64,000 nt of DNA from Acidimicrobiia bacterium (GTDB taxonomy: Bacteria > Actinomycetota > Acidimicrobiia > Spongiisociales > UBA5794). The stretch covers positions 20,352 through 84,351 of the forward strand of contig JARFRN010000249.1 of assembly GCA_029287195.1 (NCBI GenBank). The letters are read 5' to 3'. The position numbers and the translations under genes are program-made. The notes under the pieces are model-generated. The model was given only the letters and a program-made list of their open reading frames with translations. It did no database searches and had not been told where the DNA came from. Below are positions 943 to 13,343 of this stretch, one piece after another. Position 1 is the first letter of the stretch. Every line of letters starts with the position of its first letter.

Positions 943-1410
943 CTAGCTGCGGTATTCGGTTGCCGTGGTGGGGAAGTCGGCCTCTTGCCAGGTAAGGACG
1001 CGGTGCGGCACCGCAACCAGCACCGGGTCGAAAGAGAAGTCAGCCGGTAGTCCGTATTTGGAGGCGTAGGCAGCGAGCATCGAGGCCGACCTTTCCGGGT
1101 CCTGCTCAGCGCGGACTTCGCAATCCAGTATCACCACGTTGTCGCCGCTTTCGAGATGCACCACAGCCTTGCTCGAAGCCTCCAGATTGCGCGACTTCTG
1201 CGATTGCGCATCAACCCCGAAGTAGAACCGATCCTCGTGCCACACGCCCCAGATCGGAGTGGCATGCGGCCTGCCGTCCGGGGTTACGGTTGCGATCCAG
1301 TAGTTGCGAGCCGCCGCCAGCTCCGCTGCGACGTCTCCCCAGGGGACGAGCCCGGTTGGGTCGGGCGAGATTCCATAGCCGGAGGCAAACGTAGGACGAG
1401 ATTGCTTCAT
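943..1410 (-). CDS. Pyridoxamine 5'-phosphate oxidase-like FMN-binding family protein
   Basis: A 155-aa ORF with the PNPOx-like split-barrel pattern (WIATVTPDGRPHATPIWGVW...FYF). Good GC3 bias. Confidence 0.55.
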   Translation of the reverse strand: MKQSRPTFASGYGISPDPTGLVPWGDVAAELAAARNYWIATVTPDGRPHATPIWGVWHEDRFYFGVDAQSQKSRNLEASSKAVVHLESGDNVVILDCEVRAEQDPERSASMLAAYASKYGLPADFSFDPVLVAVPHRVLTWQEADFPTTATEYRS

Positions 1411-1443
1411 GCGGTGAATCTAGGACCTCCCGTGGAGAACCGC

Positions 1444-1474
1444 TTGACCCTGACGTTACGTGAAGGTGTACGGT
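1444..1474 (+). promoter_or_regulatory. Candidate MerR-type promoter: TTGACC, a 19-bp spacer, then TACGGT
   Basis: A -35-like TTGACC (1444-1449), a 19-nt spacer containing the near-dyad GACGTTACGTG, and a -10-like TACGGT (1469-1474). The ATG lies 8 nt downstream at 1483, which would imply a leaderless or very short-leader transcript. Confidence 0.3.
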
Positions 1475-1482
1475 ACGGGCCC

Positions 1483-2247
1483 ATGAAGAAGACGGAAAGG
1501 CTCACGGTCGGCGCTCTGGCCGGAATGGCCGGGGTGACGGTGCGCACGCTGCACCATTATGACCAGATCGGTCTGGTGGTGCCGTCCGGCCGGACCCCAG
1601 CCGGGTATAGGACGTACGGTGACGCCGAGGTGAAGCGACTCCAGGAGGTGCTCTTCTTCAGGGAACTGGGGTTCGCGCTCGACGAGATCAGGCAGATCGT
1701 GAGCCGACCAAGCTACGAGCGAGTGACCGCACTGGAGCGGCAACGAGCGCTGTTGGAAGCAAGAGCGGAGCACCTGCTGGCGCTGGTAGATGCACTGGAC
1801 CGGGCGGTGCGCGCAGAACGAACGGGAACGGCCATGACAAACGAGGAAATGCTCGAAGTGTTCGGCGACTTCGACCCCCCCGAGTACGAGGAAGAAGCGA
1901 AGGAAACCTGGGGCGATAGCGATGCCTACAAGCAGTCCGCCGCCCGCACCGCGCGCTATAGCAAGCAAGACTGGGAGACGATCAAGGCCGAGGGCGACGC
2001 CATCTACCAGCGGTTCCTGGACCTGATTGCAGCAGGCGAAGCGGCCGACGGGGAGGCGGCGATGGATGTCGCTGAGCAGCATCGGGCCCATATCACGAAG
2101 TGGTACTACGACTGCCCCAAGACGATGCATGCCGGTCTCGGCCGCATGTATGTGACCGACGCTCGATTCCAAGGGAACATCGACAAATCCGGCGAGGGTC
2201 TTGCGGAGTACATGGCGGCGGCGATTGCGGCCAACGCAGATCGCTAG
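1483..2247 (+). CDS. MerR-family transcriptional regulator, TipAL-like (N-terminal HTH plus C-terminal TipAS effector-binding domain)
   Basis: The N-terminus MKKTERLTVGALAGMAGVTVRTLHHYDQIGLV is a MerR HTH. The C-terminal half carries TipAS-like motifs (WYYDCP...GLGRMYVTDARF...GLAEYMAAAI). The internal ATG at 1483 was chosen over the ORF-track start at 1156. Confidence 0.8.
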   Translation: MKKTERLTVGALAGMAGVTVRTLHHYDQIGLVVPSGRTPAGYRTYGDAEVKRLQEVLFFRELGFALDEIRQIVSRPSYERVTALERQRALLEARAEHLLALVDALDRAVRAERTGTAMTNEEMLEVFGDFDPPEYEEEAKETWGDSDAYKQSAARTARYSKQDWETIKAEGDAIYQRFLDLIAAGEAADGEAAMDVAEQHRAHITKWYYDCPKTMHAGLGRMYVTDARFQGNIDKSGEGLAEYMAAAIAANADR

Positions 2248-2274
2248 TAGCGGCGGCCGGGTGCCGCGGGTCGG

Positions 2275-2890
2275 CTAGCGGCGGAAGCTACGTACCAATG
2301 TGGCCGTTGCCAACCCGGCCGCCCAGCCCCCAACAACATCGAGTGGATAGTGAGCCCCGACATACACGCGGCCGGCACCAACGGTGGCGGCAAGGAGGGC
2401 GATTGCGCCGCGGCTACGGCGGGAGGCGCCTCTCGCTAGGACGGTACCCATCGCGGCTGCTACCGCGGCGTGACCGGAGGGGTACCCGAGCCCGGTTTGC
2501 GCCATGCCTCTGATCCTGACCACGCTCGCCTCAGGGTCGGGTCGGGGCCGGTTCACCACCCGCTTCAGCGGCTTGCAGACCAGCCAGGCGGCTCCACCGG
2601 CGAGAGCGACCGTGCCGGCGCGTTGCGGCCTCTGATCGACCAGGCGAGCCAATCCCGCAGTGATGCCGACGGAAGCCAGGCTGCCGAGCTGCATCACCGG
2701 CCACACCGGCACATAGAGCCGGTCCGGTAAGCCGTTGATCATGCGGAATGCGTCGTCGTCCCATCGCGGCACGCCGCGCCGTGCAAGCGCGGCCATCGAC
2801 GCGACCGTTGCCGCCGCCGGCAAACAGACCCAACGATCGGAACGTAGATACATGTCGTCCATGGCCGTCCTGAATGTGTTCGTGACCATG
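2275..2890 (-). CDS. PAP2-superfamily phosphatase (membrane-associated acid or lipid phosphatase)
   Basis: The complete PAP2 signature is present: KRVVNRPRP (Kx6RP), PSGH, and GRVYVGAHYPLD (SRx5Hx3D). The internal start MVTNTF was chosen, so the long N-terminal extension in the ORF track is probably not translated. Confidence 0.7.
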
Positions 2891-3372
2891 GTCGGGAGGA
2901 TACGGTCACCAGCGCAAGCTCGTTCGCTGAATTGCGGCGGCGGGCATCGATGGTGCCGGAAGACCCGATCGGCGGATCGCTTCAGCACGGCCGGTGCCGC
3001 CGATTGGAACTGCAACCCGTCGGGCCACAGCCAGAGCCGGGGAACACATCGCCGGTGCGCTCGATCCCACTTCCCGTGTTTGTAGCCTTTGCCGTCGTAC
3101 TCGGTGCGCCTGCCTGGGCAAGGGGTCAACGGCATCCGCATCGAGACGCCCCAAGAGCGAATTGGCAACCTGTTCGAGATCATCGTTCGCCGACTCTCGG
3201 ACTGGACGACGGCAAGATCGAGTTCGAGTCGGGCCCTAGGTGCGAGGGGCTGCGCTCAAGTGGGCCGACCGCCTCCAGCGATTCAGACTCGATCACGCTG
3301 CGGTAGTCTCCGACGAGGGCGACTTCCAGTGCTCTGCGCGGCGCTGAGGTCGCGGGGGAAGGCGCGCTGGCG

Positions 3373-6297
3373 TTGGTCGGAGTCTGGAGGACCGTGATGA
3401 ACGAGTCGAGCCCAACGCAGGGAATGCGTCTCTACGAATGGATCAACCGGCATGCCTGGCCGCTGGCAGCCGCACTGGTCGTGCTCGCGGTGGTGCTGGC
3501 CGGCCTCTTCCCTGTGGTTGCCGATGAAGGCGAGCCTTCATTCGACCCCAAAGGTGAGATCTACGAGACGCAGAGCCGTGTTCAAGAGGTCTTTTCGACC
3601 AGTTCCCCGATACGTGGCGTCTCGTTCATCGTCGAAAACCCCAACGGTGGCGACGTACTGACCCGTGATTCTCTGCTCGAGCTCAAGCAGAACCAGGAGG
3701 CAGTGCTGGCAGACGCCGAGTCGCAGCTGCACCTCACCACTTCGTTCGATCGCGAGCTGGGCATCACCGTTGATCGGATGTTTTCGATTGCCGACGCCGT
3801 CGATGAGGCCCTCCCCGGCGGCCTAGAAGCCGCCACCGACGGTGATGTCAAGCGAGCGCTCGATGCGCTGCTCGCCGATGATGCTCCGACCAGTTCGCTG
3901 CGGTTCCTGTTGTCGTCGACGTCGACGACGCAGACCCCTACCACGATCGGTGACGAGACCATCGTGGTGTGGGCATCGCCTGCGTTCTTTGCCCAGCTTC
4001 TCTACAACATCGAGACGTTCGATCCAGAGCAAGTCCAGGAGTCCTTTGGTGACGACACCAACCTCGATGCAGAGCGCTGGTTGCGAGATGTGCAAACCAT
4101 GCTGCGTTCCGGCGACAACGTCACGGTAACGGGCGTCGCCATCGACTTCGGCCTCGTGGCCGAAGAGCAGAACGCCGCGGCCGGCCCGTTCATCTTCTAC
4201 GCAGTCGCGTTGATTCTGGTTTTCGTCGGGGCCCTGCTCCGCTCGTATTGGGCGGCAATGCTCGTAGGCGCCGGGCTCGGCGTCACGATGATGGCCTACA
4301 ACGGCATCAACGCCCTGCTCGGGCTGAAGACCGGCTCGCCGCTATTGATCATGATCGTCCCCATTGCCCTGATCAGCTTTGGCGTGGACTTCTTCATTCA
4401 CGGCAGCGGCCGCGCCCGGGAGATGCAGGTCCAAGGGCAACCCCGCGAGCGTGCCTATCCGCTCGGCATGACCGCAGTCCACGCCGCGCTGTTGCTGGCG
4501 GCCCTGTCGTCGGCTGCGGCTTTCCTGTCGAATACGGTTTCGGGAGTCGAGGGAATCATCCAGTTCGGGATTGCTGCCGCCGTCGGTCTGCTCATTGCCT
4601 ACATGGTTCTAGGTTGGGTTGCTCCGAAGCTGCTGCTGTCGATCGAGGAGAAGCTTGGGGCCCGGCCTGCCGACCTCAGCCATATGCGCACCGCAGGTCA
4701 GAAGCTCGGGTTCGTCGTAGCCGCCTTCATTGCAGCAATGGCGGTGGTGGCAGCGATCGTGTTCCCATCGGCTGGCTGGGCGCTCTACCTTATCTTCCTG
4801 GGCTTGTTCCTCTACCTGCCGTACCGTCTCACCCGGCGCCGCAACCGGCGCGCCGCCGAGGCGGGTCGGCCGCTGACAGATGCCGTGAAAGGTGCAGGGC
4901 ATGGGTTCCGCGCAGCCGGTACGATCGTGCATTTCCTCGCCCGCTGGCGAGTCTTCACGTTGCCGGCGGTTGCCATCCTGGCGATTCTTGGAATCATCGG
5001 CGCCTCGCAGGTGGAGCGAGGGTTCGAGATCAAGGATTTCTTCTCGTCCAAGACCGACTTCGTCATCAGCCTCGACAAGCTGGAGCAGTACTACGGCAGC
5101 GGCGGCGGCGAATTCGACTACATCTTCGTGGAAGGTGATCTCACCTCTCCGCAAACGCTGATAGCCCTGGAGACCGCGCAGGCTGAGATCGGCGCTTCAG
5201 GTGCGGAGTTTGTCCGCAACTTCAACGACGAAGTCGAGTTCGGTGCTAACGCCGTGACGGTTGTGCGCATCGCAACAACGTCCGATCCGATGCGGGCCGC
5301 AATCGCGGATGTGACCGGGGTTGCGATCACCGATGCGGATGGAGACGGCCTCGCCGATACACCCGAGCAGATCGCGGCGATCTACGCGTATGCCCGCGAC
5401 AACGATGTCGTAAACAACGAGGGAGTCGTGGTTTTCCGGCCCGACCAGACCGAAAGGTTCCTCTATGTTGCCGAGGGTACCCAGGCAACCACGGTGGGCG
5501 TGAGTATCGCCACCTTCACTGATGACGTGATCATCCTCGACGCCAGGAGTGTCCTCGAGGCTGCCGCCGCCGGAATCGAACCGGAGTTGTCGACTGCGGG
5601 GGTTGCCGTCGCCGTGTCGGGAGGCGCCATCACCGGTCAGGACTCGCTGGATTCTTTCGTGCAGTCGATGCTGACGTCGCTACCCGTGGCAATCGTGATC
5701 ACATCGTTGCTCGTCTTCGTCACTCTGTTCTTCGTGTTTCGGCACTTCGGACGCCGTCTGGCGTCGATCCTGAAGCGGTCGGGCCGCTACGCGTTGATCT
5801 CGATGATTCCGATCCTGCTGGTTGTGGCCTGGATCTACGGGTTCATGTACCTGGTCGGCTACAAGATCAACCTGATCACCGCAACGATCGCGGCGATAGC
5901 GATTGGTGTCGGCGTTGACTATTCGACCCACTTCACGGTGCGGTTCATCGAGGAATTCGAGCACGAGCCGAGCCGCTTCCCGGCGCTGCGTCGGACGGGC
6001 GAGGGCACGGGTGGTGCACTTGCCATCTCGGCGGCCACTTCGATGACGGGCTTCATGGTGATGGCAACGGCGCCGATGCCGATGTTCGTGACCTTCGGAG
6101 TGTTGACCGCGGTGATGATCGCGTTCTCACTGCTGGTTTCGCTTCTCGTCCTACCCAGCTTGCTACTTCTCATCACCCCGTCCCGTAAGGGTGCGGAGCG
6201 TGAGGAGATGATCGAGCAGGTGACCGGCGGCGAGTACGAGTACGAGCCGCATTCCCGGGAACAGGCGTTCCACGAGCAGGGAGCTGAAACGGAGTAG
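3373..6297 (+). CDS. MMPL/RND-superfamily transporter (likely lipid exporter)
   Basis: A 974-aa protein with two 6-TM bundles, each preceded by a large extracytoplasmic domain. The second bundle has the RND-type motif GVGVDYSTHF. The exact start is uncertain (3373, 3397 and 3421 are all possible). Confidence 0.85.
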   Translation: MVGVWRTVMNESSPTQGMRLYEWINRHAWPLAAALVVLAVVLAGLFPVVADEGEPSFDPKGEIYETQSRVQEVFSTSSPIRGVSFIVENPNGGDVLTRDSLLELKQNQEAVLADAESQLHLTTSFDRELGITVDRMFSIADAVDEALPGGLEAATDGDVKRALDALLADDAPTSSLRFLLSSTSTTQTPTTIGDETIVVWASPAFFAQLLYNIETFDPEQVQESFGDDTNLDAERWLRDVQTMLRSGDNVTVTGVAIDFGLVAEEQNAAAGPFIFYAVALILVFVGALLRSYWAAMLVGAGLGVTMMAYNGINALLGLKTGSPLLIMIVPIALISFGVDFFIHGSGRAREMQVQGQPRERAYPLGMTAVHAALLLAALSSAAAFLSNTVSGVEGIIQFGIAAAVGLLIAYMVLGWVAPKLLLSIEEKLGARPADLSHMRTAGQKLGFVVAAFIAAMAVVAAIVFPSAGWALYLIFLGLFLYLPYRLTRRRNRRAAEAGRPLTDAVKGAGHGFRAAGTIVHFLARWRVFTLPAVAILAILGIIGASQVERGFEIKDFFSSKTDFVISLDKLEQYYGSGGGEFDYIFVEGDLTSPQTLIALETAQAEIGASGAEFVRNFNDEVEFGANAVTVVRIATTSDPMRAAIADVTGVAITDADGDGLADTPEQIAAIYAYARDNDVVNNEGVVVFRPDQTERFLYVAEGTQATTVGVSIATFTDDVIILDARSVLEAAAAGIEPELSTAGVAVAVSGGAITGQDSLDSFVQSMLTSLPVAIVITSLLVFVTLFFVFRHFGRRLASILKRSGRYALISMIPILLVVAWIYGFMYLVGYKINLITATIAAIAIGVGVDYSTHFTVRFIEEFEHEPSRFPALRRTGEGTGGALAISAATSMTGFMVMATAPMPMFVTFGVLTAVMIAFSLLVSLLVLPSLLLLITPSRKGAEREEMIEQVTGGEYEYEPHSREQAFHEQGAETE

Positions 6298-6319
6298 AAC
6301 AGCCCGACCGGCTGAACTT

Positions 6320-6354
6320 GTGGAGGTCGCCGTGAGGCGACCTCCACGTTCTTG
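6320..6354. terminator. Bidirectional stem-loop terminator between the convergent MMPL and PAP2 genes
   Basis: The perfect 12-bp stem GTGGAGGTCGCC / GGCGACCTCCAC with loop GTGA, followed by GTTCTTG. Confidence 0.5.
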
Positions 6355-6681
6355 CGCCTAGGTGTCCTAGGCACGAGCTTCGTCGCGCGATCCAGTCCCG
6401 GCGGGCCGACGCCTCGTCGACTTCGCCAGCAGGACTACAACTTCGGCTCGACCTGGCAACGTGAAGATGATGATGGTCACAACGAACGCGCCGTAGAGAA
6501 TGAGGGCGGCATCGGACTCATCAATCCGTCAGCGCCACCAAGCGTTGCGGCGGAATGGCGGGACTCTGCGTTTCGGATCGATCGATCCCATTCCCGAGGG
6601 CTGCTTCCGGGGCCTAGGGATGGGCCTGCTGCGGACTACCCACGGCAGGCTTGCACCACCGGGCCATTCGTCGAAAAGCGG

Positions 6682-7260
6682 CTACTCGGATACTGCGGGA
6701 ATGCCCACGGCGAGGTTGAGCCCAGCGGCAATGGCAATGCCGAGCGCGGCTCCGGCGATAACGTCGAGCGGGTTGTGAGCGCCCAGATAAACCCTGGCGA
6801 AGCCGTTGAGCACCGCCAGCAAGTAGACGATGACCGTGCCCCGGCGCCCCAGGTATGGGGCCAGCAGTCCGGCCAAGGCGAACGCAAAGATGGCGTGACC
6901 GGAAGGGAATCCGAGCGGGGACGTATTGACATCGCGAATCACGGCGTCCGGCACCGTGAAAGCAGGGCGCTCCCGCTCGACTAGAGCCTTGACCCCCCAC
7001 CATTCGAAGGCGAGCTTGAGCGGAATCGCCGCGATCAGAGCCAGTCCGAGCCGGTAGCGGCGGATGGCAACAGCGGCCAGTGCTACCACGGCAATGAAGA
7101 CCAACGAGCCAAAGATCTGAAACACCCACATCGGAGCCTCGAGCCAATCGGGAAGTCCGTTGATGACGTTGAATGCCGCTTGCTCGATACTCCCGACATC
7201 GCCGTTGCGTACGACAAACATGCAGAGCACCACCACCGCCAAACCGACGGCCGCGACCAT
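6682..7260 (-). CDS. PAP2-superfamily phosphatase, paralog of the gene at 2275-2890
   Basis: Motifs KALVERERP (Kx6RP), FPSGH and ARVYLGAHNPLD. The internal start MVAAVGLAVVVL was chosen. It lies downstream of, and on the same strand as, the kinase/flippase-like gene. Confidence 0.7.
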   Translation of the reverse strand: MVAAVGLAVVVLCMFVVRNGDVGSIEQAAFNVINGLPDWLEAPMWVFQIFGSLVFIAVVALAAVAIRRYRLGLALIAAIPLKLAFEWWGVKALVERERPAFTVPDAVIRDVNTSPLGFPSGHAIFAFALAGLLAPYLGRRGTVIVYLLAVLNGFARVYLGAHNPLDVIAGAALGIAIAAGLNLAVGIPAVSE

Positions 7261-7324
7261 GAGATCCCTGCGGGGATGACGCTCGAATTGAGCGGGGGCG
7301 CCGGAGCGAATGCGGGAGGCGAGG

Positions 7325-9856
7325 CTAGAGGGCTCCAAGGCGTTCCAGCCGTTTGTAGGCAAGGTACCCGGGCAAGATCGGAACCCAGAAGGTGCCGATC
7401 CGAAACAGGAACACCGCCGGGACTGCCGTTGCGGCATCGAGCCCGAAGGCGGTCAGTCCCGCGATCAGCGCAGCTTCTGCCGCCCCGATGCCGCCTGGGG
7501 TTGGCGCCACTTGTGCGAGAGCAGAGCCTGCAAGGTAGACGGCGGTGACTGCGACAAAGCCGAGACCGCCCCCAAAGGCGGCGATGCTATACCACAGAGC
7601 GAACACATAGGACATGGTGATCACAAACGAGCCGCCGAACAGCTCCAGCATCTTCAACGGATTGACGGCGACCGCGGTCACTCCGGTGACGGACTTGCGA
7701 AGAATTGGCCAGATTCGCCGCAACCACAGCTTGCGACCCCAGGGCAGCAGCATGATCAAGCCGGCTGCGGTCAGCACGAAGACCAGCCCGACAAGTACCG
7801 TCTGGCCGGACGGCAGCGAGATCACGTCGGTTGCCGACCGGCCTGCGGTGGTGACGAAGATCATCAACAGCAACACGTGGACTATCACGCCTGCCACGTT
7901 GTTGAGCCCAACGCCGGCGATGGCTACCGCCGGTTCGACACCGCTCTTCTGCAGGTAGCGAATGTTGGCGGCGATGCCGCCCACCTTCGCCGGAGCTATC
8001 CGATTGAAGAACGACGCTGCGATCTGCGCCAGGATGGTGGGGATGAATCGAAGCCGTTCGGGCATTGCCCCCATCAGAGCCACGGCGGCCCCGACGTAAG
8101 TCATCAGCGAGAAGAAGATGACCACCGGGAACCACTGCCAATCGGCTCCGACCACTTCGCCGAAGTCCACCTCGGCCAGCTGCGGAATCAGGATGTAGAA
8201 CGCCAAAGCCAGCATCAACATCATGAACACGGTGCGTGAGTTCACCCGCTCCAGCCTCTCGAGCTCGAACTCTTCCAGTCCCGTTGCCGCCTGCACCTCG
8301 GTGCGGAGGTCGTCGAGGAGCCCCTTTCGCTTCTTGAAGGCGTTGCGGGTAGTGGTGCTCAGGGCCGTCGGCTGCAGTCGCGGGGCGGCGGCAGCAACCA
8401 CCTCCGGCCCGAGCCGGTCGACCGCAGTGGCGACGGTTCTCTGCGGACCGACTACCAGTGTCAAAGTCGCCAGCAGCTGGGCCACGTCACCATTGAGATC
8501 ACCGTCCGATGCAGAGATCTCGGCGAACCCGAAGTCGATTAGTGTCGGCCGCCCGTCGGAAGTCAGCAGTATGTTGGCCGGGCTGAGGTGACGGTGGGTT
8601 ATCCGTGCCGAATGCAGCTTCGCCACCTGCGCCCACGTCGCTCCCAGTACCTGGTCTGTGATCTGCTCTGGGTCGACCTCGTCGAGGGTGGAGCCGTCGA
8701 TCTCTTCGTAGGCGATCAGCATGGCGCCTGCGGTGACATCGGCTACTCGCAGCATCTGTGGAGTGGCCACGCCGGCGGACGACGCCGCAAGGGACATGCC
8801 GGCCTCATGTTCCACCTCGCGGCGCAGCGAGGCAAAGGGCCGCTCGTCACCAAATCCCTTGAGCCGGGCCATGCGGTAGAGGCGAAACAGGATTTCCGCA
8901 GCCCGCTCTTCCAGGCTCCTCACCTTGACGAAGATGCCTTTGCCATCGTCGGTTGTCACCGAGTAGAGCGTGGTACCACCCGCTGCGGCGTGCGCCGGAG
9001 CAACGGAAGCAACTTGGAAGCCGTGATGCGCCAGCGCCCGGCCGACGTCGGATCCCTTTGGCCTTCTGTCGGGTGATCCGAACGCAAGAAGGACTCCGGC
9101 CCCGATCGCATAGCTCAGCGCCAGGATTAGCAGGGCGTCCACGGGAACCAATAGCCCGTCGATGAGGCGCACGACCAGGAATAGCAGCAGCACGATCCAG
9201 CCCGTCCGTCGCCACCGGCGACTCAGCCACGGGGTCAACGTCGAGAATGCCGCGGCCAACCCGGCCAGGTAAACGATGGACGGGAAGCCGTCGCCCGGCA
9301 CACAGGCATGAGATCCGAAGACCTGACGAATTGCCTCGTCCGGGTCTGTGACAAGCTCTCCGACGGCCCCCGGATCATCCGCCCGGACCCCTTGGACGGT
9401 CGACGCTGCAACGTTGTCGCAGACCCATGACGGGGGCTGTACAGCTAGCTCCGGCGGCGCAAATCGGGCGGTGAGTTCGCTTTGTATTCCCCAGGCGACC
9501 GCCACTGCCGCCACTACCGCAATCACCACCAGCGTCAAACGTCTATATCGCCTCCAGAACAGCAAGAGCCCGATCACCAGTAGAGGCAGAATCCAGGCGA
9601 CGAGCTGGATTGCGAGAATGGTGGTCACCACCATCGCGGTCGGCAGGCCATCGAACGCGTCGACCACTTCGATGGTGATACCGACGCTTATGTTGTCGAG
9701 GACACTGGCGAGCAGGAAGCCGAGTACCCCGGCGACGAGAGCTACAACGAGTCGCAACAGGTCGCTTGGCAGTCGGCCGCGTCGGTAGGCCTCATCCTCT
9801 CCTTCGACGCGGATGAGGCGCTGGCCCTGGTCGCGGGAGACGTTGTGATCGAGCAC
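7325..9856 (-). CDS. Fusion membrane protein: N-terminal TM segments, a protein-kinase-like domain, and a C-terminal LPG_synthase_TM (MprF/UPF0104 flippase-like) domain
   Basis: The kinase-like core has ...GKGIFVKVRS..., the catalytic-loop-like HRHLSPANILL, and IDFGFA (the DFG motif). The C-terminal ~280 aa has about 8 TM helices and the PF03706-type motif PTPGGIGAAEAALIAG. Total length is 843 aa. Confidence 0.75.
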   Translation of the reverse strand: MLDHNVSRDQGQRLIRVEGEDEAYRRGRLPSDLLRLVVALVAGVLGFLLASVLDNISVGITIEVVDAFDGLPTAMVVTTILAIQLVAWILPLLVIGLLLFWRRYRRLTLVVIAVVAAVAVAWGIQSELTARFAPPELAVQPPSWVCDNVAASTVQGVRADDPGAVGELVTDPDEAIRQVFGSHACVPGDGFPSIVYLAGLAAAFSTLTPWLSRRWRRTGWIVLLLFLVVRLIDGLLVPVDALLILALSYAIGAGVLLAFGSPDRRPKGSDVGRALAHHGFQVASVAPAHAAAGGTTLYSVTTDDGKGIFVKVRSLEERAAEILFRLYRMARLKGFGDERPFASLRREVEHEAGMSLAASSAGVATPQMLRVADVTAGAMLIAYEEIDGSTLDEVDPEQITDQVLGATWAQVAKLHSARITHRHLSPANILLTSDGRPTLIDFGFAEISASDGDLNGDVAQLLATLTLVVGPQRTVATAVDRLGPEVVAAAAPRLQPTALSTTTRNAFKKRKGLLDDLRTEVQAATGLEEFELERLERVNSRTVFMMLMLALAFYILIPQLAEVDFGEVVGADWQWFPVVIFFSLMTYVGAAVALMGAMPERLRFIPTILAQIAASFFNRIAPAKVGGIAANIRYLQKSGVEPAVAIAGVGLNNVAGVIVHVLLLMIFVTTAGRSATDVISLPSGQTVLVGLVFVLTAAGLIMLLPWGRKLWLRRIWPILRKSVTGVTAVAVNPLKMLELFGGSFVITMSYVFALWYSIAAFGGGLGFVAVTAVYLAGSALAQVAPTPGGIGAAEAALIAGLTAFGLDAATAVPAVFLFRIGTFWVPILPGYLAYKRLERLGAL

Positions 9857-9931
9857 TGATGGGACCCTATCGGCGAGTCCCCAACCCGTCCAGTTTCAAC
9901 GCGCCGGCGGAATCTGGTCCCGTGGACTGCT

Positions 9932-10426
9932 CTATTCGACGGGAGTTGCCACCAACGTGCCGTCGACCATTTCGCCGGAGATGGTGACCGAGTAGTCGGT
10001 CCACATTACGTTGCCCGCGGTTTGGAGGCTATCCGGGTCGACCTGACCGAGGTCTGTAACGGTGACGAAGGCCCCGCCGCACTGCGGCGGGAAAGACTCG
10101 GCAAGTGCCTCGCAGATCTTGATCTCGTTACCTACGGCGACGATGAAGCCTGCAACCGCGACGGGGCCGGAGACATCGGCGGCGTCCCCAGGTTGGATTG
10201 CCGCCGGAAGCGGCTCATCTGTGACATCTCCAGGCGTCGGCAAGTCGGTGGGTTCGCCGCCGGGGGTGTCGTTGCAGTCGGGCTCGCCCTCGAGGCAGGC
10301 GCTGGCGATCGGCCGGTCGTCCCCGGAGCCACTATCGATCGGCAGTTCTTCGGTGGTTTCAGAATCGCCGCCGCACGCAGTGACAACGAGAGCGAACGAA
10401 GCTATCAAGAGTAGGGGTCTCTTCAC
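9932..10426 (-). CDS. Hypothetical secreted lipoprotein
   Basis: Signal peptide with lipobox (LVVTAC-GG), an acidic Pro-rich linker, and four Cys in the C-terminal domain. Confidence 0.5.
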   Translation of the reverse strand: MKRPLLLIASFALVVTACGGDSETTEELPIDSGSGDDRPIASACLEGEPDCNDTPGGEPTDLPTPGDVTDEPLPAAIQPGDAADVSGPVAVAGFIVAVGNEIKICEALAESFPPQCGGAFVTVTDLGQVDPDSLQTAGNVMWTDYSVTISGEMVDGTLVATPVE

Positions 10427-10489
10427 GACGGTTCCTTCTTGATCAATCTATGCCGGTATGACGCCGTAGCGAGGTTGGCGGGTTCCCGG

Positions 10490-11359
10490 TCAGAGAGCCT
10501 GATACCACTCGCGGATTGCCGATCCGATCTCGTCGGGTGAGTCCTCCTGGATGAAATGTACGCCGCGAACGGTCACTTCGGTCTGGTTGGGCCAGCTCCG
10601 GCAAAACTCACGGGGCACGCCGGTGAGGATGGAACCTGGTTCGGCGTTGATGAAGAGCTTGGGAATCTCCGACTGCCGTAGCCAGCGCCCATAGTCTCTC
10701 ACGATGCTGGCAACGTCCTCAGGTTCGCCTTCGACAGGTATCTGGCGCGGCCACGTGAGGGTGGGTCTCCGGCTTTCCCCGGGCACAACGTAGGGAGCGC
10801 GGTACATCGCCATCTCTTCGTCGGTCAAGTCGCGCATGATCGACGACGGCAGGATGCGCTCTACGAAGACGTTCTTTTCCAGGATGATGGTCTCTCCCGC
10901 TGGTGATCGCATCGCCTGGAAGATGGAACGAGCTTCTTCGGGCCACATCTCCCAGCTGATGCTTTGAACGAATGCTTCCATGTAGGCGATGCCCTTGACT
11001 CGATGGCGGTGGCGGTTGGCCCAATCGAAGCCGAGTGCACTTCCCCAGTCGTGAATGACGAACGTGACCCGATCGCCGATATCGAGCTGTACCAGCAGAT
11101 CATCGAGAAACTCTCGGTGCTCCACGAAGCGGTAGCTGTCGGGGCCGGGATCATCGAGCGCGTCCGAGTCGCCCATACCGATGAGATCGGGGGCGATGCA
11201 ACGGGCGAGGTCCGAAAGGTGGGGGATTATGTTGCGCCACAGATAGGAAGAGGTCGGATTGCCGTGCAGCAACAGAATGGTGTCTCCTTCCCCCACGTCG
11301 ACATAGGCCATCTGCTTGCCGAGCACAGATGCGTATTGCTTCTTCATGGGAGCTCCCAC
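10490..11359 (-). CDS. dhaA: Haloalkane dehalogenase (HLD-II, DhaA-like alpha/beta hydrolase)
   Basis: It aligns motif-by-motif with DhaA from memory: HGNPTSSYLWRN (halide-binding Asn), HDWGS (nucleophile Asp and halide-binding Trp), YMEAF (catalytic Glu) and GVHFIQEDSPD (catalytic His). Confidence 0.85.
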   Translation of the reverse strand: MGAPMKKQYASVLGKQMAYVDVGEGDTILLLHGNPTSSYLWRNIIPHLSDLARCIAPDLIGMGDSDALDDPGPDSYRFVEHREFLDDLLVQLDIGDRVTFVIHDWGSALGFDWANRHRHRVKGIAYMEAFVQSISWEMWPEEARSIFQAMRSPAGETIILEKNVFVERILPSSIMRDLTDEEMAMYRAPYVVPGESRRPTLTWPRQIPVEGEPEDVASIVRDYGRWLRQSEIPKLFINAEPGSILTGVPREFCRSWPNQTEVTVRGVHFIQEDSPDEIGSAIREWYQAL

Positions 11360-12662: not shown

Positions 12663-13343
12663 TCATCCTGTCAGCTGCGACCAAAATCGGCGCGGGCTGT
12701 CGATGATACGGCTGGCAGCGGTCACGGCAAGGAGAGCCGTGGCGGGGTGATCATGCCCAAATCGAGCTATGAAAGTCTGCTGCTCCAGTGAAAGCGGTCC
12801 GAACCGGAGAGCCTCGATCAGTGCGACACCCGGGGAGTGTCCCTCTCCCGCTTGCAGAGCTGCGATGACACTGCCCGTGCGTCCCACGCCCGCCTGGCAG
12901 TGCACGAATACCGGTCCCGAGGCGGCAGTGATCGTCTCTCTGATCTCGGCGAGCTGCGCTGCAGTTGGGGTCTGGCCGTCCCGAATCGGGATGTGAATCC
13001 AAGCGAGCCCGGCTTCAGTGGCTCGGTTTGACGAGGTCGTAGGTTCGGCCTCAGCCCTGAGGTCGATCACTGCGACAACGCCACCATCGGCCAGGGCCGC
13101 GTATCCCTCGGGACTAGGTGCGGCACCCCGCCAAACGTTCTCGGTCACCCGAGCGAAACCCTCGACCCCGATGAAGGCTTCGACCGGCGAACCTCGCAGT
13201 AGTCGAACTGCGAAGTGCGGCGCCGCAACCAGCAGGTGCATCACCGTAAGGACTGCAGTCATCAGCAGCAACTTCCTCAGCCCGCGAGGCGTCGGTCGTC
13301 CTGCTATCTCCGAGGCGGCATCTTTGCCCGCTGTGATCATCAT
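12663..13343 (-). CDS. Protein-tyrosine / dual-specificity phosphatase family protein with an N-terminal membrane anchor
   Basis: CX5R P-loop HCQAGVGRTG, preceded by a hydrophobic segment LLLMTAVLTVMHLLVAA. Confidence 0.65.
   Translation of the reverse strand: MMITAGKDAASEIAGRPTPRGLRKLLLMTAVLTVMHLLVAAPHFAVRLLRGSPVEAFIGVEGFARVTENVWRGAAPSPEGYAALADGGVVAVIDLRAEAEPTTSSNRATEAGLAWIHIPIRDGQTPTAAQLAEIRETITAASGPVFVHCQAGVGRTGSVIAALQAGEGHSPGVALIEALRFGPLSLEQQTFIARFGHDHPATALLAVTAASRIIDSPRRFWSQLTG

Follow-up and report, generated by a model that had tools for sequence, protein, structure and literature searches.

A fusion protein with predicted pseudo-PAP2, kinase-like and flippase-like domains recurs beside PAP2 phosphatase genes in Actinomycetota

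What binds together a bacterial gene cluster in which two lipid-phosphate phosphatases, a large transporter and a kinase–flippase fusion are encoded side by side, and which of these genes belong to one functional unit? The cluster in question lies in a 64,000-nucleotide stretch of contig JARFRN010000249.1 of an Acidimicrobiia bacterium (assembly GCA_029287195.1, positions 20,352 to 84,351; the window hereafter), whose proteins we examined by open reading frame (ORF) listing and by Pfam and NCBIfam scans. Four adjacent genes were confirmed in this way, with the domains and strands that the initial annotation had given them: PAP2a (2275–2889, minus strand; PF01569, E 8e-20), an RND-superfamily (Pfam MMPL) transporter of 966 amino acids (3397–6297, plus strand; PF03176, E 7e-21), PAP2b (6682–7338, minus strand; PF01569, E 2e-19) and a fusion protein of 843 amino acids that we call FUS (7325–9856, minus strand; PF03706, E 1e-27, plus a kinase-like region), which has PAP2b directly 3′ of it on the same strand. 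The initial annotation had proposed that the four genes form a dedicated system for making or exporting a modified envelope lipid. Its observations were largely right and its interpretation half right: the association of PAP2 enzymes with FUS stands, whereas the membership of the RND transporter is weakened, and a shared terminator and an aminoacylated product lack support. In our view, the interest of the locus lies mainly in a pseudo-PAP2 domain of FUS that had gone unnoticed and in the conserved partnership of FUS with PAP2 genes, and not in the four-gene arrangement.

To our knowledge, PplT/MprF-type domains are the only known dedicated family of bacterial phospholipid translocases, and beyond MprF almost none of them has an assigned substrate. 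FUS joins such a domain to an apparently dead lipid phosphatase and a kinase fold, often beside live phosphatases of the same subfamily. The pairing of FUS with PAP2 therefore offers a concrete, testable way into the questions of what these translocases transport and how flipping is tied to the chemistry of the head group.

FUS had been described as a kinase/LPG_synthase_TM fusion. Both of these domains are present, but a third, N-terminal one had been overlooked, so that the protein comprises three domains and not two. No Pfam model, PAP2 included, matches the first 270 residues of FUS. BLASTP aligns this region collinearly with PAP2b, pairing GFPSIVY with GFPSGHA and RLIDGLLVPVD with RVYLGAHNPLD, and an hhalign comparison of a profile of 76 FUS N-termini with a profile of 24 neighbouring PAP2 proteins gave a probability of 99.2% and an E value of 1.3e-19 over 175 columns. 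As a Foldseek search with the full-length FUS model returned kinases only, the N-terminal domain was modelled separately; the top four matches of the resulting AlphaFold model (predicted local distance difference test score 83) in the PDB are PgpB-type PAP2 enzymes. This first domain (residues 25–262; 9071–9784, minus strand) has six helices, and the residues required for PAP2 catalysis are gone from it: PSGH has become PSIV, the histidine of motif 3 is a valine and the lysine of motif 1 is not conserved. Judged by its sequence, domain 1 of FUS is a catalytically dead PAP2 homologue, a predicted pseudo-phosphatase.

A loop of about 55 amino acids is inserted in domain 1, where the active site would face outward. 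The positions of basic stretches after transmembrane (TM) helices TM2, TM4 and TM6 suggest, by the positive-inside rule applied to the sequence and the model, that the kinase-like domain is cytoplasmic and that the pseudo-active site faces outward together with a pair of cysteines. These two residues, Cys146 and Cys185 (approximately nucleotides 9300–9420), flank the insertion, are conserved in at least 90% of the homologues and may form an extracytoplasmic disulfide.

The two PAP2 genes encode predicted stand-alone membrane lipid-phosphate phosphatases that are 39% identical, which bears out their description as paralogues. They score 71 and 70 bits against PF01569 (cut-off 27.2). Complete Kx6RP / PSGH / SRx5Hx3D signatures had been claimed for both; every catalytic residue is indeed in place in each protein, but the residue before the arginine of the third motif is glycine or alanine and not serine (KRVVNRPRP / YPSGH / GRVYVGAHYPLD in PAP2a and KALVERERP / FPSGH / ARVYLGAHNPLD in PAP2b). 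The best NCBIfam matches of both are undecaprenyl-diphosphatases, at scores far below the equivalog cut-offs (46–48 bits versus 250 for SepP and 26–30 versus 229 for PRK11837), and the solved structures nearest to PAP2b are LpxE (6ebu) and Bacillus subtilis PgpB (5jki). PAP2a and PAP2b thus share the three-motif signature and the six-TM size of PgpB, BcrC/YbjG, LpxE and LpxT and score far below every equivalog cut-off. They differ from these enzymes in forming a subfamily of their own, which has a conserved N-terminal INGLPD-type segment in common with the N-terminal domain of FUS; the copy in FUS is the one that lacks the catalytic residues.

The start of PAP2a is probably ATG 2889, which yields about 204 amino acids (an orthologue on a JGI contig is called at 195); a 302-residue ORF running to 3183 is probably an over-extension, the additional part of which would not be translated. 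For PAP2b, whose listed ORF was over-extended as well, TTG 7338 is the most likely start. It yields a protein of 218 residues and an overlap of 14 nucleotides with the stop codon of FUS, which makes translational coupling of the two genes probable. The PAP2b gene of a related locus, L084, is 78% identical to that of the window and shows the same overlap of 14 nucleotides with FUS; locus L104 carries a PAP2b-type gene that likewise encodes 218 residues and has an overlap with the stop codon of FUS there, and the downstream PAP2 ORFs of L008 and L011 also overlap FUS.

Whether the association of PAP2 with FUS extends beyond these examples was examined in 80 loci from species-representative genomes, 15 loci from metagenomes and several more obtained through exact-protein look-ups. 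Six-frame ORFs of these loci were searched with the window proteins, and a partner was counted if it lay within 3 kb of FUS. The FUS family is large: 559 relatives, Streptomyces included, were confirmed by tblastn among pattern matches in the species-representative genome collection. Among other Acidimicrobiia and Actinomycetota, a PAP2 gene accompanies FUS in 13 of 32 loci; in the window's own marine clade (at least 66% identity) it does so in 3 of 18, with further, partial PAP2 genes on short contigs that are not among the three counted, and in the 41 loci of the Streptomyces and Streptosporangiales type it never does. In the first of these groups the PAP2 gene is often divergent and upstream of FUS or downstream of it with an overlap, and five loci (L012, L014, L019, L058 and L067) have one a-type and one b-type PAP2 beside FUS. 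Furthermore, when 141 immediate neighbours of FUS outside Streptomyces were classed by Pfam, PAP2 ranked first with 11 members, followed by ABC transporters with 5; this census held no RND protein and no recurrent transferase. The expectation of a conserved neighbourhood was therefore borne out for PAP2 and the fusion protein, which recur together, but not for the RND transporter, whose occurrence near FUS is confined to the window's clade (7 of 18 loci, against 0 of 73 others).

A second protein that links PAP2 to a kinase fold emerged from the same survey. This PAP2-kinase paralogue stands beside FUS in 17 loci, 10 in the window's clade, 7 among the other Acidimicrobiia and Actinomycetota and none in the Streptomyces and Streptosporangiales type (for example L104:6666–9226, L085:2762–5352, L006:7278–9895, L004, L005, L096 and L097). 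In about 580 amino acids it combines a PAP2 domain that has partly degenerated with an HRD[IV]KPAN motif that is intact, and a TM helix lies at its C terminus. A search of the whole 64-kb window did not find it. In the loci that carry it, the next gene encodes a lipoprotein of about 280 residues with a weak HGTP_anticodon-like match; the suspicion that this lipoprotein is a split-off PplT domain was dismissed, as hhalign gave it probabilities of less than 1% against all three FUS domains. Other recurrent neighbours were judged spurious or unrelated: ORF clusters c18, c20, c21, c23, c33 and c65 overlap real genes on the opposite strand and were taken for antisense shadows, and the large ORF downstream of FUS in L004, L005 and L090 encodes an NAD-glutamate dehydrogenase. 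The PAP2-kinase "module" of Segetibacter was likewise set aside as a precedent, its kinase being of another family and its arrangement different.

The second domain of FUS (residues 270–528; 8273–9049, minus strand) has a Bud32/RIO-like kinase fold, with Pfam matches to Pkinase, APH, RIO1 and Kdo, an NCBIfam match to Bud32 (E 5e-15) and best Foldseek matches that include Bud32 (4ww7) and PRPK (7szc). The β3 lysine (K311), the asparagine of the catalytic loop (N428) and the D441-F442-G443 triplet are present and are conserved in the Acidimicrobiia group, while the HRD motif reads H421-R422-H423 (8587–8595), histidine taking the place of the catalytic aspartate in the window as in its clade. Of 83 homologues, 24 have aspartate here, 13 histidine and 38 arginine, the arginine marking the Streptomyces/Streptosporangiales group, which has lost the lysine, the asparagine and DFG as well. 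Listed by lineage, the residues found there are D, H, N, A, G, V or R. The pattern of substitution points to a decay of the kinase catalytic residues on more than one occasion in the FUS family, during which the flippase-like domain stayed nearly invariant. Since the catalytic aspartate is replaced in most lineages, phosphotransfer appears to be dispensable for the family, and we read the kinase fold as a putative regulatory or nucleotide-sensing module in the lineage of the window.

An architectural parallel for such a module may be found in mycobacteria, where MviN/MurJ (Rv3910) is reportedly a flippase for lipid II that carries a fused pseudokinase domain in the cytoplasm (Gee et al. 2012, Sci Signal). 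Both proteins would combine an actinobacterial lipid translocase with a cytoplasmic kinase fold devoid of catalytic residues, which is regulatory in MviN. The likeness is one of architecture only: MviN/MurJ belongs to the MOP superfamily and not to PplT, its kinase fold is PknB-like and not Bud32/RIO-like, and it has no PAP2 domain.

The third domain of FUS (residues 551–843; 7328–8206, minus strand) is of the MprF flippase-like type (PplT/LPG_synthase_TM). PF03706 matches residues 551–830 with 97.8 bits (cut-off 33.4), so that the C-terminal 300 amino acids constitute a clear PF03706 domain like that of MprF and of stand-alone PplT/YbhN proteins (UPF0104). It is the most conserved part of the FUS family and carries an invariant APTPGGxGAxE motif. 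The NCBIfam model bifunc_MprF is matched by FUS only at model positions 6–292 of 841, which correspond to the flippase part, and at 44 bits against a cut-off of 600. Neither FUS nor any of its neighbours has a Pfam match to the aminoacyl-phosphatidylglycerol synthase domain (LPG_synthase_C/DUF2156), and without that domain the suggestion that the cluster handles an aminoacylated lipid has no basis. FUS is thus similar to MprF and PplT in that the PplT domain is associated with lipid-modifying enzymes, either fused to it or encoded alongside, and differs from MprF in lacking the synthase domain and in having a predicted dead PAP2 and a kinase-like fold as partner domains.

Fusions of kinases to PplT domains are listed for Actinobacteria in a survey of the PplT family, which mentions neither PAP2 domains nor PAP2 neighbours (bioRxiv 10.1101/2022.03.11.483950). 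In two-hybrid assays reported in the same preprint, PplT/YbhN of Escherichia coli interacts with PgpB, which is a PAP2 enzyme. No description of the FUS architecture or of its pairing with active PAP2 genes was found in the literature searched, which was incomplete, so that this is absence of evidence only.

Considering these observations, we propose that the functional unit consists of FUS and the active PAP2a and PAP2b enzymes, that it serves the translocation and dephosphorylation of a phosphorylated lipid, and that the RND transporter is a lineage-specific accessory; we hold this preferred reading with about as much belief as doubt. It starts from the domain identities, the homology, the loss of catalytic residues, the gene overlap and the neighbourhood statistics given above, and it is for topology, physical coupling, transport direction and substrate that the following scheme is conjectural. 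The PplT domain would move a phosphorylated lipid between the membrane leaflets. The dead PAP2 domain, with its former active-site pocket turned outward, may bind the lipid-phosphate head group and may couple, or dock, the translocase to the working PAP2 enzymes, which would remove a phosphate on the outer side of the membrane. The kinase-like domain in the cytoplasm might bind nucleotide and would act as a regulator and not as an enzyme in the window lineage. The most economical guess for the substrate would be a polyprenyl (di)phosphate carrier lipid or a phospholipid of the phosphatidylglycerol-phosphate type, and the first of these would have a bearing on cell-wall synthesis and antibiotic targets. 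The RND transporter, which lies outside the conserved core, may extract the product from the outer leaflet.

Several points weigh against this proposal. PAP2 enzymes are common housekeeping genes. The best NCBIfam matches of PAP2a and PAP2b, to undecaprenyl-diphosphatases, are far under the cut-offs, and the Foldseek support for a PAP2 fold in FUS is weak on its own (E 0.05–0.9). The detection of neighbours relied on stop-to-stop ORFs and single-query phmmer thresholds and included many short contigs. Finally, no PAP2 gene lies near FUS in any of the 41 Streptomyces/Streptosporangiales-type loci or in L083 and L003, and the partnership of FUS with PAP2 is therefore not obligatory in cis.

The broader model of the initial annotation, in which all four genes, the RND transporter included, constitute a single pathway dedicated to making or modifying an envelope lipid and to its export, is in our estimate unlikely. 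It turns on the transporter, whose start was placed at ATG 3397 and not at TTG 3373 because a 100%-identical public protein (P0121) has 966 residues; the length of 974 amino acids given initially was thus wrong. PF03176 matches the protein in two stretches with 75 bits, and its hydropathy profile (TM1, loop, TM2–6, TM7, loop, TM8–12) displays the 12-TM pattern with two large extracytoplasmic loops. The RND protein is by sequence nearest to lipid-transporting RND proteins, which fits an export pathway: its closest solved relatives are the sterol-sensing regions of Patched and NPC1, as well as MmpL3 and HpnN. No characterised subfamily cut-off is reached (HAE3 138.7 of 351.9 bits, MMPL 86.6 of 874.7, HpnN 72.2 of 751.9, BstA 49 of 1400). 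The parallel drawn with the MmpL exporters of mycolata holds only in a generic sense. The window transporter shares the Pfam family and the 12-TM architecture with two outward loops with MmpL3 and its kin, but the match to MmpL3 is very distant (E 7e-6), the best PDB matches are the eukaryotic Patched and NPC1, and the host is of the Acidimicrobiia type and no producer of mycolic acids, as its best homologues bear the labels of Acidimicrobiia metagenome-assembled genomes.

The case for a four-gene pathway rests with the linkage of the RND gene to FUS. In the window itself and in 7 of the 18 loci of its clade, an RND gene is found no more than 3 kb from FUS, and it takes four arrangements there: directly adjacent and convergent (L003), convergent but separated by PAP2b (the window, L084 and L104), upstream of FUS on the same strand (L004, L005 and L090) and upstream of the PAP2-kinase paralogue (L096). 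A linkage that outlasts rearrangement is suggestive of selection, and we regard its persistence through four arrangements as the main argument for its significance. PAP2a, too, adjoins the RND gene in a second genome, on the JGI contig, which has the order of the window (MerR, PAP2a, small ORF, RND). An analogy of architecture, not of family membership, is offered by hopanoid clusters, which encode the UPF0104-type membrane protein HpnL together with the RND lipid exporter HpnN according to the TIGRFAM definitions, and which therefore also pair a PplT-family protein with an MMPL-type RND protein. The differences are that the window RND scores 72 bits against the HpnN cut-off of 752, that no hopanoid genes are nearby and that the RND linkage is not conserved; FUS itself has no match to the NCBIfam HpnL model at E ≤ 0.01.

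Against a four-gene pathway stands the absence of the RND gene from 11 of the 18 loci of the window's clade and from all 73 other FUS loci. Three RND orthologues (77, 72 and 69% identity) have unrelated neighbours. No acyl-, glycosyl- or aminoacyl-transferase was detected by Pfam among the cluster genes. PAP2a and PAP2b may be ordinary undecaprenyl-pyrophosphate phosphatases. The full set of two PAP2 genes, RND and FUS was seen in the window only, among the related loci examined, and its relatives carry other combinations. L003, the closest syntenic genome, shares its flanking genes with the window and is about 80% identical to it in nucleotide sequence across FUS and RND; these two genes are 44 bp apart there and a MerR/TipAS gene adjoins the RND start, so that both PAP2 genes are missing. 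FUS and RND are also the members present in L004, L005 and L090. A 2.9-kb insertion upstream of FUS in the same locus was considered as a PAP2-kinase pair and discarded, since it encodes LutABC-type lactate-utilisation proteins. L083 (87% identity) has FUS alone, and L084 and L104 have FUS, PAP2b and RND plus a divergent PAP2-kinase pair. The linkage of RND to FUS is thus real, but limited to one clade and optional, and the RND gene is not a conserved member of the cluster.

The junctions between the genes of the window bear on the same question. Between the stop codons of the RND gene (6297) and PAP2b (6682) lie 384 bp, and the shared bidirectional terminator that had been placed there found no support: a perfect 12-bp hairpin (6320–6347, plus strand), 23 nucleotides past the RND stop codon, sits behind the RND gene only, and a terminator scan reported no site in the gap, the hairpin not being called because it has no T run. 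It is possible that this hairpin terminates the RND gene alone. The spacer instead holds, on the minus strand, remnants of a TMEM175-family gene (6367–6681; tblastx against L098:740–1387), which is intact directly downstream of FUS in L098, a 91% identical relative (L098:746–1423, 225 amino acids, Pfam TMEM175 E 2e-27). A second relic precedes the RND gene, where an ORF of 49 residues with a single TM helix and the tail ETPQER..FE.IVRRL is usually found, even in genomes that have neither FUS nor PAP2 nearby. An intact copy of this ORF precedes the RND orthologues of L084 (7868–8017), L104 (20–163), L101 (5452–5598), L103 (6641–6766) and the JGI contig; in the window, tblastn with the L084 sequence gives two matches in different reading frames (3064–3120 and 3125–3199, plus strand), a split that is either a frameshift or an assembly error. 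As scars, the TMEM175 remnant and the split ORF mark the gene order of the window as recent. The cluster is a recently assembled, variable mosaic around a core of FUS and PAP2 and not a fixed four-gene operon.

A narrower form of our preferred reading, that of FUS and PAP2 as a phosphorylated-lipid module, specifies the substrate, and we consider it less probable still than the four-gene pathway. PAP2a and PAP2b would be undecaprenyl (polyprenyl) diphosphate phosphatases and FUS would return the polyprenyl phosphate to the inner leaflet, the dead PAP2 domain capturing the product and the PplT domain flipping it. FUS and the a- and b-type PAP2 enzymes would then be an actinobacterial machine for polyprenyl-phosphate recycling, gated by a nucleotide-sensing pseudokinase, in which undecaprenyl diphosphate (C55-PP) or decaprenyl diphosphate is dephosphorylated outside and the monophosphate is flipped back, a functional analogue of DedA/UptA and DUF368/PopT and, if true, a third class of carrier-lipid flippase beside them. 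LpxE and PgpB hydrolyse C55-PP. That these two are the nearest solved homologues of the PAP2 enzymes, and that the best, if sub-threshold, NCBIfam matches of both are undecaprenyl-diphosphatases, agrees with recycling, and one would expect a product-binding module to be a phosphatase domain from which the catalytic residues alone are missing. A basic envelope function would also suit the Streptomyces-type loci, where FUS, a conserved gene, lies in housekeeping synteny beside an AdnAB-like helicase, a TAP hydrolase and MoeZ. What speaks against this specific version is that the characterised PplT/MprF domains handle glycerophospholipids (PMC11980842; 10.1101/2022.03.11.483950).

The least likely explanation is a chance neighbourhood, in which an autonomous lipid-sensing or signalling FUS, generic housekeeping PAP2 enzymes and an unrelated RND exporter were joined by rearrangement: the high variability of the locus among close relatives, the pseudogene remnant and the frameshifted small ORF as signs of recent reshuffling, and the many genomes in which FUS stands alone would all be accounted for, but not the conservation of the PAP2b/FUS overlap in L084 and L104, the enrichment of PAP2 among FUS neighbours across distant lineages, the homology of the FUS N-terminal domain to exactly this PAP2 subfamily, or the existence of the PAP2-kinase paralogue as a second, independent linkage of PAP2 to a kinase.

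Scans of the DNA for regulatory elements returned little. A scan for sigma-70 promoters and terminators gave nothing exceeding the expectation from shuffled sequence, and an Rfam scan of 1500–11000 at a permissive threshold gave one chance-level miRNA match and no known RNA element in the two long intergenic gaps.

Several further genes lie around the cluster, or around FUS in a relative. A MerR/TipAS-type regulator (1156–2247, plus strand) ends 28 bp from the stop codon of PAP2a and keeps its place beside PAP2a or the RND gene on the JGI contig and in L003; MerR-family genes recur among the neighbours of FUS (4 of 141). Directly upstream of FUS on the same strand, a lipoprotein of 164 residues without a family match (9932–10426, minus strand; lipobox VVTAC) is kept in L003, where the inserted LutABC-type cluster parts it from FUS. 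In a 66%-identical relative (L001:8026–9615), a GT2 glycosyltransferase and a HEAT-repeat protein are encoded directly upstream of FUS; other PplT-domain proteins typically have GT2 enzymes as partners. A few genes from the cluster, the window also encodes a membrane-anchored dual-specificity/PTP-like phosphatase (12663–13343, minus strand; Pfam PTP-NADK and Tc-R-P).

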